Positions 56,344-59,133 of a stretch of 64,000 bases of DNA are shown here, piece by piece. Numbering within the stretch: the stretch's first letter is position 1; every line of letters starts with the position of its first letter. The DNA is taken from sequence record NC_019399.1; one strand, 5' to 3'. The notes under the pieces are model-generated. The model was not told the DNA's origin. It saw nothing but the letters and a program-made list of their open reading frames with translations, and made no database searches. The DNA is from Escherichia phage vB_EcoM_ACG-C40. Both the position numbers and the translations under genes were made by a program.

Positions 56344-56373
56344 ATGGGGACCTTTCGGTCCCCATATTTTTAT
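56344..56373 (+). terminator. rho-independent terminator after gene 54
   Basis: ATGGGGACC-TTTC-GGTCCCCAT followed by ATTTTTATTT. Confidence 0.65.
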
Positions 56374-56660
56374 TTACGGAATGAAATGAAAGCAGAAACT
56401 GAAGCAACTAAACTGTCTTCAATATAAACTTCAATTTTTACCGGAGCTTCTGACTCAAATTTACCTGTTACTACACCTTGGAAAATACTTTCAGTCTGTT
56501 CTGGTTTTGAAAAATTTTCAGAAGGAAAAATTCCGAACTTTTTATCTGTTCCAAAAATTTTAATAAATTCATCGTAAACTGCTTCATTAAAAGCATTATC
56601 AGCAGGAATAACGCCTTCAACGACGAGCTCTTGGCCTAAAAAGCGTAAAGAAGATTTCAT
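56370..56660 (-). CDS. hypothetical protein (96 aa) downstream of the alt region
   Basis: Intact ORF. Confidence 0.55.
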   Translation of the reverse strand: MKSSLRFLGQELVVEGVIPADNAFNEAVYDEFIKIFGTDKKFGIFPSENFSKPEQTESIFQGVVTGKFESEAPVKIEVYIEDSLVASVSAFISFRK

Positions 56661-56689: not shown

Positions 56690-57078
56690 CTACTGTAACA
56701 CAACACGAGGGACTTGTAAACTACATTTTGAACTTTTTAGTACGCGTAATAGGCATGCGTCGATTTTATACTGTTTCATTGTTTGAAGAGCAGTATCAAA
56801 AACAGCATTAATGACACCAATTGGATTTCCACCCAAGTTTTTAAGCTTAACTAATGATAGTTTCTCATTAACACCTATCATTACGATATGCATCATTTTG
56901 TCGCCTGGTTTAACGTTTTATCTGTATCACCGCCAGAGGTGTATGTACAAAATCTAAATCCAGGAAGCACGCTTTCTTCGCCGGCTTGAATAGCAAAAAT
57001 TTGTGGTATTTTATGCTTAGGATTTAAGTTAACAACCGGCGCCGAAGCGCCGTCAAATAATTATGTAATAAGTTCCAT
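56690..57078 (-). pseudogene. degenerate tandem duplicate of the alt 5' region (about 125 codons) with a nonsense codon and a frameshift
   Basis: Starts 3 nt after the alt stop: MELIT-TAA-LFDGASAPVVNLNPKHKIPQIF...CTYTSGGDT..., then MMHIV...QYKIDACLLRVL in another frame. Confidence 0.7.
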
Positions 57079-57081
57079 GAT

Positions 57082-59133
57082 TTATCCTTGAACGAACTTG
57101 TAAGGCATGTTTGCAATATCTATGCAAGACGCAATAATTCCAAGAGATGATTCTACTTTCTGTTTAACATTTGATGAAACAAATGATGCAAAGTCAACTC
57201 TGTCTTCTATATCACCTGTCATTGTAACCAATTCACCAGTTTCCATTAAATGGTCTCCGTCATAGATTACCGATTCGGTGAGTTCTTCTGTGGTCATAAC
57301 TTCAGCTTGAATAAGCTTGTTGTTAGTTCTAACTGTTCCATCGTTGTAAGATGCATCGGTTATTTTATTAACTTTGACCATTAATCCACGTGGCAAAATG
57401 ACTTCCATTTCATTTGAAGGCGCTAAACTTCCACCGGGTAAAACAACATTAACCTTATCAGCCCCAGTAATAACCCATCCAATTCCAACTAAATTATCGC
57501 TAGAATTTACTAGTCCTTCATCAGTTTTATCAATAGAAACACTTAGACGCTTTTCGTCTGGTAAAACACCCACAGATGAATCAGTCATCCAAGTACCAAA
57601 AATATTTGGATATAATGATGTTGACACAAAGTTTCTAAAATAAAAAACTCGATTTTTTACCATTGCTTCGTATATTGAAGGTAACATTCGTTGTGAACGA
57701 TACAAAGTAATACCTTTTGGTAATCGTTCACCATTTTTAAAGGCTGAATCTAAATTATCAATGGCTTGTTCTATTTCAGGTGCTGTTAAAATACTTGTAC
57801 GCTCATCTGGATTATATAATCCCAAAAGAGCATTATTTATGTCTACATATCCTGAACCTACGTATTCACGAATTCCGCGTTTTTGTGCTGGTGTGTATTT
57901 AGATGAATCTTTATTTTCGACTATAGGATGTAATGACCATCCAGCGGTAAGAGCATATCCACGTAATTCTCTTCGAATAATCTTTGTTTTTATTGCATTC
58001 CAAGAATTTTGTACTAACTCATTTGCAGCATCTTGGTTTAAATGCGAATGTCTGTTAATATTTCTTTCAAACCAAGCACCTTTATATTTTTCTAAAGTAT
58101 CATCGACGATAGAAGCAATAGTTTCTAAAGTTTTTATTGAAGTAATAGATTCTTTTCGTAATTTTTCTAAAGCTTTATTTTTTATTTCTGCATTAATAAT
58201 GGATTCTTTATCTTCAGGAATTATAGAAGCTTCTCTGAATGCCATCCCAGCTGTAACACTGCTAAGAGCATTCTCTAGTGCAAATCCTGAAGTAGAAATT
58301 ACCGTTAATTCATTAGAATCAGAAATTAAAGGAGCGTCCGCTGGTTTATTTAATTCTGCCGCTGAAGCCTCAAATTTTTGAAACATCGGTGTTTCAAATC
58401 TAGAAGATTCCAACGACTGACTTTGTGCAATTGCTCTACGGGAAATTTTAACTTTAACGATTACAGCTTGATCAGAACGTTTATCATTTTCTTGTGCAAT
58501 AGATGCTGCAATTGCCTCATTTTTAGTTACTTGAGCTCCAGTATCTTTATTGATATAAACATCACCGACCTTCGATTCAACTTTAGTAAAGAGCTCGGTA
58601 CTAATTTCCGGAACCCCTGGAATGTCTTCTAGTGATACATTTTTGCGATGTATAAGAATATATGCATACTTTTTATCATAATCCCAGAGTTCCTTAAGAA
58701 GGACGTATCTGCCACCTGAACGACTACGGATAAGTCTATCAGCAATAACTTGAATTTGTCGAGCTTGACCAGCGGTTTTAGACTTAAGAATACGGAGCAT
58801 ACAGGCATCAATTTTATACTGACGCATCGTTTGCATTGCAACAGTAAAAACCGAATTGATATAATTAATTGGGCTTGGACCAAGACCTTTCAATTTAGCA
58901 ATTGAACCTTTAGCGGTTAATGTAAAAGGAACAATATGCATCATTTTATCGCCCATCTTTAAATCACGATTAGTATCACCTCCAGATGTATAGGTACATA
59001 AACGAAAGCCTGGTTGTTCAATTGCGTCATCAACATGAACTGAAAAAATTTGCGGTATTTTCTTCTTTGGATTTAAGTTTGTAATCGGAAGAGTAGTATC
59101 TTCGTCAAATAATTCTGTAATTAGTTCCATCAT
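57082..59133 (-). CDS. alt: Alt ADP-ribosyltransferase (head-packaged, modifies host RNA polymerase)
   Basis: 683 aa; N-terminus MMELITELFDEDTT; T4 position. Confidence 0.9.
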   Translation of the reverse strand: MMELITELFDEDTTLPITNLNPKKKIPQIFSVHVDDAIEQPGFRLCTYTSGGDTNRDLKMGDKMMHIVPFTLTAKGSIAKLKGLGPSPINYINSVFTVAMQTMRQYKIDACMLRILKSKTAGQARQIQVIADRLIRSRSGGRYVLLKELWDYDKKYAYILIHRKNVSLEDIPGVPEISTELFTKVESKVGDVYINKDTGAQVTKNEAIAASIAQENDKRSDQAVIVKVKISRRAIAQSQSLESSRFETPMFQKFEASAAELNKPADAPLISDSNELTVISTSGFALENALSSVTAGMAFREASIIPEDKESIINAEIKNKALEKLRKESITSIKTLETIASIVDDTLEKYKGAWFERNINRHSHLNQDAANELVQNSWNAIKTKIIRRELRGYALTAGWSLHPIVENKDSSKYTPAQKRGIREYVGSGYVDINNALLGLYNPDERTSILTAPEIEQAIDNLDSAFKNGERLPKGITLYRSQRMLPSIYEAMVKNRVFYFRNFVSTSLYPNIFGTWMTDSSVGVLPDEKRLSVSIDKTDEGLVNSSDNLVGIGWVITGADKVNVVLPGGSLAPSNEMEVILPRGLMVKVNKITDASYNDGTVRTNNKLIQAEVMTTEELTESVIYDGDHLMETGELVTMTGDIEDRVDFASFVSSNVKQKVESSLGIIASCIDIANMPYKFVQG

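Follow-up and report, generated by a model that had tools for sequence, protein, structure and literature searches.

A probable deletion remnant of a second Alt-type ADP-ribosyltransferase gene next to alt in Escherichia phage vB_EcoM_ACG-C40

The DNA analysed, referred to here as the window, is a 64,000-nucleotide stretch of Escherichia phage vB_EcoM_ACG-C40 (NC_019399.1) and is a T4-type (Tequatrovirus) segment. On the minus strand gene 30 (DNA ligase), alt.1, alt, a degenerate Alt-like stretch at 56690-57078 and alt.-3 follow one another, with genes 54 and 48 on the plus strand beyond alt.-3. Comparison of the open reading frames (ORFs) of the window with T4 shows that this is the order annotated in T4. 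All features described below are on the minus strand unless stated otherwise. The resident alt gene (57082-59133) is full length, encodes the head-packaged ADP-ribosyltransferase of 683 amino acids and is the ortholog of T4 alt; as argued below, it provides the context of the remnant and not its source. The Pfam family ADPrib_exo_Tox is recognized at residues 375-615 of Alt (E = 1.4e-34). A PDB sequence search with Alt returned only distant matches to the catalytic domain, in CdtA-type toxins, and none for the N-terminal region. The TAA stop of alt occupies 57084-57082 and is followed by ATC and then by a second ATG at 57078-57076, with which the Alt-like stretch begins.

Downstream of that stretch lies an intact alt.-3 gene (56370-56660), which encodes 96 amino acids, belongs to DUF5498 (PF17602, E = 5e-64) and matches T4 alt.-3. 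T4 mutations that extend the C-terminus of this protein to 110 or 117 residues lead to escape from the CmdTAC defence system (PMC11618068). In the window alt.-3 has the wild-type length, and its promoter is untouched by the deletion considered to have formed the remnant. Between the converging alt.-3 and gene 54, at 56344-56365, a hairpin with a 9-bp stem has a terminator-like score on both strands, and a bidirectional terminator is annotated at the matching position in fPS-65.

Reading from 57078 downward, 3 nt past the alt stop, ATG GAA CTT ATT ACA TAA encodes MELIT and a stop. The TAA (57061-57063) is codon 6, at the position of the Glu of MMELITE in Alt. T4 and all the intact paralogs described below have GAA here, and the nonsense codon kills the alt.-1 ORF in the window. 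Past it the frame stays Alt-like through FCTYTSGGDT and is then lost at a run of four A (56916-56919) that has five in the intact paralogs, a 1-nt deletion at column 166 of the allele alignment. Some 20 nt further on, at AAAATGATG, the shifted frame reaches a TGA (56895-56893) that overlaps the ATG (56896-56894) reopening the original frame. The initial annotation had described MELIT with its stop, the Alt-like frame beyond it and the ORF that follows, all of which we confirm. It was also right that frame is lost, but it placed the shift at the AAAATGATG run and not at the A-run upstream.

The reopened ORF (56690-56896) encodes 68 amino acids, MMHIVMIGVNEKLSLVKLKNLGGNPIGVINAVFDTALQTMKQYKIDACLLRVLKSSKCSLQVPRVVLQ, re-enters the frame of the paralog at Met61/Met62 and is the ortholog of T4 alt.-2. 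It crosses the deletion junction, continues out of frame over the last codons of the paralog and then over the alt.-3 promoter, and terminates at a TAG. Its final 13 codons (SKCSLQVPRVVLQ) are not derived from Alt in frame; this tail is an accidental read over the last codons of the paralog and the early promoter of alt.-3.

That promoter (56692-56721), of the sigma-70 type with GTTTAC, a 17-nt spacer and TACAGT, was identified by a promoter scan and is annotated in Lutter and fPS-65. The -10 box (56692-56697) reads TACAGT only in the window, the 19 other alleles compared (13 remnant and six intact) having TATAGT, and this T to C change moves the alt.-2 stop by one codon to give 68 residues here as opposed to 67 in T4. 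Lying at the 3' edge, the promoter is probably the only functional element inside 56690-57078. Near the other edge, 26 nt into the paralog frame, a hairpin (57039-57052; GGCGCTTCGGCGCC / GGCGCUUCGGCGCC) has a perfect 5-bp G+C stem and a UUCG loop. The sequence codes for Gly-Ala-Ser-Ala-Pro, and the sequence of Alt at this place is unrelated. It is invariant in 20 of 20 alleles and present in both the minimum-free-energy (MFE) and centroid structures. We considered GGCGCTTCGGCGCC as a terminator or attenuator between alt and the paralog and rejected it: there is no U-tract, the terminator scan did not call it and its folding is unexceptional against shuffled sequences (z = -1.05).

The similarity of the stretch to the 5' end of alt is far above chance. 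Within the window blastn gives 70.5% identity over 200 nt (E = 2e-20) and a global alignment 64.3% over 347 aligned nt, whilst the frame-repaired remnant matches Alt residues 2-118 in tblastn with 61.5% identity over 117 amino acids (E = 3e-47). The proposal that an Alt-like stretch lies directly after alt is thereby borne out, although its estimated length of about 125 codons is reduced to the 116 (57078-56732) over which Alt-type homology extends.

The relatives of the phage carry something larger at this position. A BLAST search of GenBank phage sequences with the 392-nt stretch matched 549 records, and in most of these the match is confined to positions 1-350, at 93-97% identity, and lies beneath a gene annotated as a full-length Alt-like ADP-ribosyltransferase. 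In HP3, RB18, T2, RB51, bov10K1 and fPS-65 this gene, of 2,058 bp and 685 codons, extends from 3 nt past the alt stop to a point 60 nt short of alt.-3; the records of RB18 and RB51 label it alt.-2. The intact paralog and Alt share 41% identity overall, rising to approximately 65-70% over the first 235 residues or so. The paralog has ADPrib_exo_Tox at residues 413-620, with arginine, Ser-Thr-Ser and Glu-x-Glu motifs that align with those of Alt, and it ends in ...KFKM* where Alt ends in ...KFVQG*.

The part retained in the window (56732-57078) corresponds to codons 1-116 of the 685, that is T4 alt.-1 and most of alt.-2, and ends midway in the block conserved between Alt and the paralog (residues 1-235). 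Its nucleotide identity to the first 350 nt or so of the paralog is 97.5% in HP3 (L004:4998-5351) and 95.8% in RB18. The last 20 nt, approximately, of the paralog and the DNA downstream are 95-97% identical to the window as well. The window aligns to HP3 as two blocks, with an overlap of 9 nt.

The junction (56732-56740) is a single copy of a 9-bp repeat, CTAAAAAGT, of which the intact paralogs hold two copies 1,699 bp apart, the left copy falling at codons 114-116 and the right copy four codons ahead of the stop. In HP3, T2, RB51, bov10K1 and fPS-65 their positions within the extracted stretch are 346 and 2045; in RB18 the left copy is CTAAAGAGT instead of CTAAAAAGT. The flanks in HP3 are CGCGTA CTAAAAAGT AAAACAAATG on the left and GGAATGT CTAAAAAGT TCAAAATGTAG on the right. 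The window has CGCGTA CTAAAAAGT TCAAAATGTAG, the left flank joined to the right. Adjacent to the junction, 56721-56731 hold the 3' end of the paralog itself, its last three codons (Phe-Lys-Met) and TAG stop, now in another frame within the alt.-2 ORF. The HP3 and RB18 paralogs end ...ATG TCT AAA AAG TTC AAA ATG TAG and the window reads CTAAAAAGTTCAAAATGTAG. A partial copy of the 5' end of alt could not contain these codons.

The six intact genomes have 2,125 nt between the alt stop and the alt.-3 start, as opposed to 424-426 nt in 14 remnant genomes (the window and 13 others), and this difference points to an out-of-frame deletion of 1,699 bp. In T4, short direct repeats are well known to give rise to deletions. 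The remnant has lost codons 117-682 and with them the whole catalytic domain (residues 413-620), and the frame-repaired product of 116 amino acids matches no Pfam family, ADPrib_exo_Tox (PF03496) included. Nowhere else does the window hold the missing DNA: searched with the deleted segment of HP3, it yields no more than weak, paralogous hits within alt.

In a BLAST census of the GenBank phage collection the deleted segment (1,651 nt, at least 80% covered) was present in 402 Tequatrovirus records and the deletion junction in 88. The intact gene is therefore the common state, some 4.5 times more frequent than the remnant, and the two-gene tandem arrangement is most likely ancestral. The 23-nt junction sequence was also sought by exact match among the viral contigs of IMG/VR, where it occurred in only two, too few for a census. 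A 50-nt match of 96% to the junction, the 3' end of alt.-2 and the alt.-3 promoter is also present at the extreme end of the 32-kb record of Staphylococcus phage SAJK-IND (MG010123.1, 31847-31896), and may represent a contaminating T4-like read in that assembly.

We compared 14 remnant alleles (of the 88 junction records) with six intact paralogs (of the 402). The codon 6 TAA occurs in six of the 14 (the window, Lutter, AV120, BYEP01, SG1 and F26, not T4) and in none of the six intact genes. The deletion in the A-run is present in 12 of the 14, T4 among them, and absent from AV120, SG1 and all six intact paralogs. In F25 a further 1-nt deletion at the junction changes the C-terminus of the alt.-2 ORF. 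Of the four ways in which the A-run deletion and the nonsense codon could be combined, three are seen among the remnant alleles, which fits independent hits after the 1,699-bp deletion and later recombination between alleles. Two substitutions recur in the remnants, TTC to TTA at codon 111 (11 of 14) and AAG to AAA at codon 57 (10 of 14), and are candidates for derived changes linked to the junction.

Variants private to the remnants, read in the original frame, comprise eight synonymous, ten non-synonymous and one nonsense change, and those private to the intact genes comprise 13 synonymous and no non-synonymous changes. The contrast (8:11 against 13:0) gives p = 6e-4 by Fisher's exact test, with the caveats that counts are small and that some variants scored as private may be unsampled ancestral polymorphism. 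As judged from these alleles, constraint is relaxed in the remnant. Three marks of a pseudogene coincide here: an intact, longer ortholog at the same locus, lesions that disrupt the frame and relaxed constraint.

Expression data are available for T4. Time-resolved omics detected alt.-1 and alt.-2 transcripts, of class 'middle', and neither protein, whilst Alt.-3 protein was detected (PMC9697503, Table S2). Alt.-2 went undetected where many other small T4 proteins were found (PMC9697503, Table S2), although for a protein of 7 kDa absence from shotgun proteomics is weak negative evidence. A terminator scan found none between alt and the remnant, which suggests that the two are co-transcribed. 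The claim of the initial annotation that the stretch is a pseudogene is upheld by the nonsense codon, the frameshift, the relaxed constraint and the absence of a detected T4 protein.

The initial annotation also supposed that the copy includes the capsid-targeting region. Alt carries a 7-residue N-terminal propeptide, which is removed by the gp21 protease (reviewed in PMC9026906). The MELITE motif of the Alt-like paralog and of the T4 remnant is the counterpart of this propeptide, and in the window the codon for the Glu at its end has become TAA. Capsid targeting is a moot question for this phage because translation stops after five residues.

Taken together, we consider with a probability of about 0.9 that a second, full-length gene for an Alt-type ADP-ribosyltransferase was truncated by a deletion of 1,699 bp and that 56690-57078 is its non-functional remnant. 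A whole alt-type gene would have been duplicated in tandem long ago, to sit between alt and alt.-3 as it does in most Tequatrovirus genomes. In an ancestor shared with T4, illegitimate recombination or replication slippage involving the two 9-bp copies of CTAAAAAGT would have removed 1,699 bp. The deletion is out of frame and would have fused the 116 N-terminal codons to the last 11 nt of the gene and the early promoter of alt.-3. The stump, free of selection, would then have lost one nucleotide in the A-run, giving the split seen in T4 as alt.-1 and alt.-2, and in the lineage of the window the GAA to TAA nonsense change at codon 6 was presumably added later. The stump is probably still transcribed with its neighbours and most likely gives no functional protein.

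That there was a single ancestral event is unproven because the same repeats would give an identical junction each time. In the flanking sequences the distances between remnant genomes equal those between remnant and intact genomes, nearest neighbours are mixed and the flanks are mosaic. We had considered whether the deletion-bearing phages form one clade, and these distances reject it. Given the mosaic flanks, the deletion allele has either moved by recombination or recurred. Over the last 500 nt of alt (57085-57584 in the window, and its counterpart in loci L001-L019) there are deeply diverged allele classes with a mean pairwise distance of approximately 12%, whereas divergence downstream of the remnant is only 3-4%. 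These classes show no correspondence with whether the paralog is present or absent, and the locus is thus a recombination mosaic.

The deletion allele is found in approximately 18% of sequenced Tequatroviruses, on mosaic backgrounds. It may be asked whether loss of the paralog was adaptive, spreading by recombination or recurring because the paralog is costly on some hosts, for instance where a host defence senses it, or whether the 68-residue Alt.-2 has acquired a role in controlling Alt packaging. We regard both as unlikely, positive support being confined to the frequency of the allele and its mosaic flanks.

Several other explanations of the stretch deserve consideration. Was it ever longer than it is now? 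The initial annotation took it for a partial tandem duplication, in which only the first 125 or so codons of the resident alt were copied and the copy decayed in place. Homology to the alt 5' end and a position directly after alt agree with this, as does the wording in T4 RefSeq, 'duplication of the first part of gene alt', yet the stretch is 95.8-97.5% identical to the paralog 5' end in relatives and only 64% identical to alt. It retains the last three codons and the TAG of the paralog, unlike the 3' end of alt, and breaks at a 9-bp repeat that occurs twice in the intact gene, a gene some 4.5 times commoner than the remnant. This explanation, to which we attach almost no credence, is already refuted as far as sequence comparison is able to refute it. 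What was duplicated was a whole gene, and the duplication is old. Since the remnant keeps both the 5' end and the last codons of the paralog, its short length results from the later 1,699-bp deletion between the 9-bp repeats.

Does the stretch retain a function? The same deletion origin could be accepted and the 68-residue Alt.-2 supposed to be translated and kept, for example as a mimic of the Alt N-terminus that modulates prohead incorporation or the activity of Alt. All 14 remnant alleles keep the ORF open, but its C-terminus is frameshifted in F25, and its final 13 residues arise by accident, from reading a stop codon and a promoter out of frame. T4 transcribes the ORF, yet the protein is undetected there (both PMC9697503, Table S2). 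The parent frame is kept, an AGG 8 nt upstream of the ATG, also a legacy of the parent gene, could plausibly act as a weak ribosome-binding site, and no terminator intervenes between alt and the remnant; the upstream alt.-1 ORF, a possible translational coupler, is however dead in the window. The fragment ends in the middle of the conserved block of residues 1-235, and private variants in the alt.-2 part are three non-synonymous to three synonymous where the same codons show only synonymous changes in the intact paralogs. We judge a functional Alt.-2 to be quite unlikely. Alternatively the DNA might be kept as a cis element, either for the spacing or context of the alt.-3 promoter or because the GGCGCUUCGGCGCC hairpin is a signal for RNA stability or processing at the 3' end of alt mRNA. 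The promoter is indeed inside 56690-57078, but it takes up only the last 30 nt or so, and the hairpin at 57039-57052, although invariant in the 20 alleles and present in the MFE and centroid folds, is in a region that folds no better than composition-matched shuffles (z = -1.05) and has no U-tract. The approximately 300 nt between promoter and hairpin gather indels and non-synonymous changes freely, and retention as a cis element seems very unlikely. The favoured interpretation is still of a decayed deletion remnant.

The locus itself is already known: for more than 20 years the T4 annotation has carried it as an interrupted copy of the beginning of alt. The entry for these genes in T4 RefSeq (NC_000866) says that alt.-1 and alt.-2 'together reflect an old duplication' of the start of alt with a stop codon introduced, and Nolan et al. 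2006 (PMC1524935) list the two as paralogous duplications of alt. We searched the literature for an explicit description of a deletion origin of alt.-1/alt.-2 and found none. The remnant is an ordinary decaying pseudogene and of little significance alone. The useful result is the corrected origin, according to which T4 and this phage would be derived by deletion, whilst most T-even phages, T2 included, carry two complete Alt-type enzymes. It would follow that alt.-1 and alt.-2 should not count as protein-coding genes, nor be called 'ADP-ribosyltransferase' as they are in several GenBank records, and that work on injected ADP-ribosyltransferases confined to T4 misses a second, uncharacterised enzyme common among its relatives.

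The closest known system is T4, and the comparison with the small ORFs beside its alt gene identifies the stretch with the alt.-1 (NP_049810) and alt.-2 (NP_049809) locus. Orientation and neighbours are the same, the 425 nt that separate the alt stop from the alt.-3 start are 97.6% identical (NC_000866), and the deletion junction and the A-run frameshift are common to both. They differ in that T4 alt.-1 is an open frame of 61 residues, which the codon 6 TAA cuts to five codons in the window; alt.-1 and alt.-2 are not both open here. The record LR597660, named 'T4_ev151' (L001 3117-3541), is 99.5% identical to the window across the remnant, compared with 97.6% for the T4 reference, and does not have the T4 reference allele at this place.

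The full-length 'Alt-like RNA polymerase ADP-ribosyltransferase' paralog of T2, RB18, RB51, HP3 and approximately 400 other Tequatrovirus records occupies the same position, and its first 116 codons and its last three codons with the stop are 95-97.5% identical to the window. It encodes 685 amino acids with ADPrib_exo_Tox, whereas the window is without the 1,699 bp that encode this domain. T4 Alt (gpAlt) is the head-packaged, injected mono-ADP-ribosyltransferase; the remnant shares homology with its N-terminal part but is without the catalytic domain and its frame is broken. Beyond Tequatrovirus, Nolan et al. 2006 (PMC1524935) report two duplicates of alt in Aeromonas phage 44RR, one full-length and one partial. 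In the Krischvirus RB49 (NC_005066) ORF183c (RB49p183; L020 6490-7314) is a shortened Alt-family gene directly downstream of alt and before gene 54. RB49p183 is an intact ORF of 274 amino acids, whose annotation likens it to the catalytic, C-terminal part of Alt, and represents the opposite half of the protein to that retained in the window.
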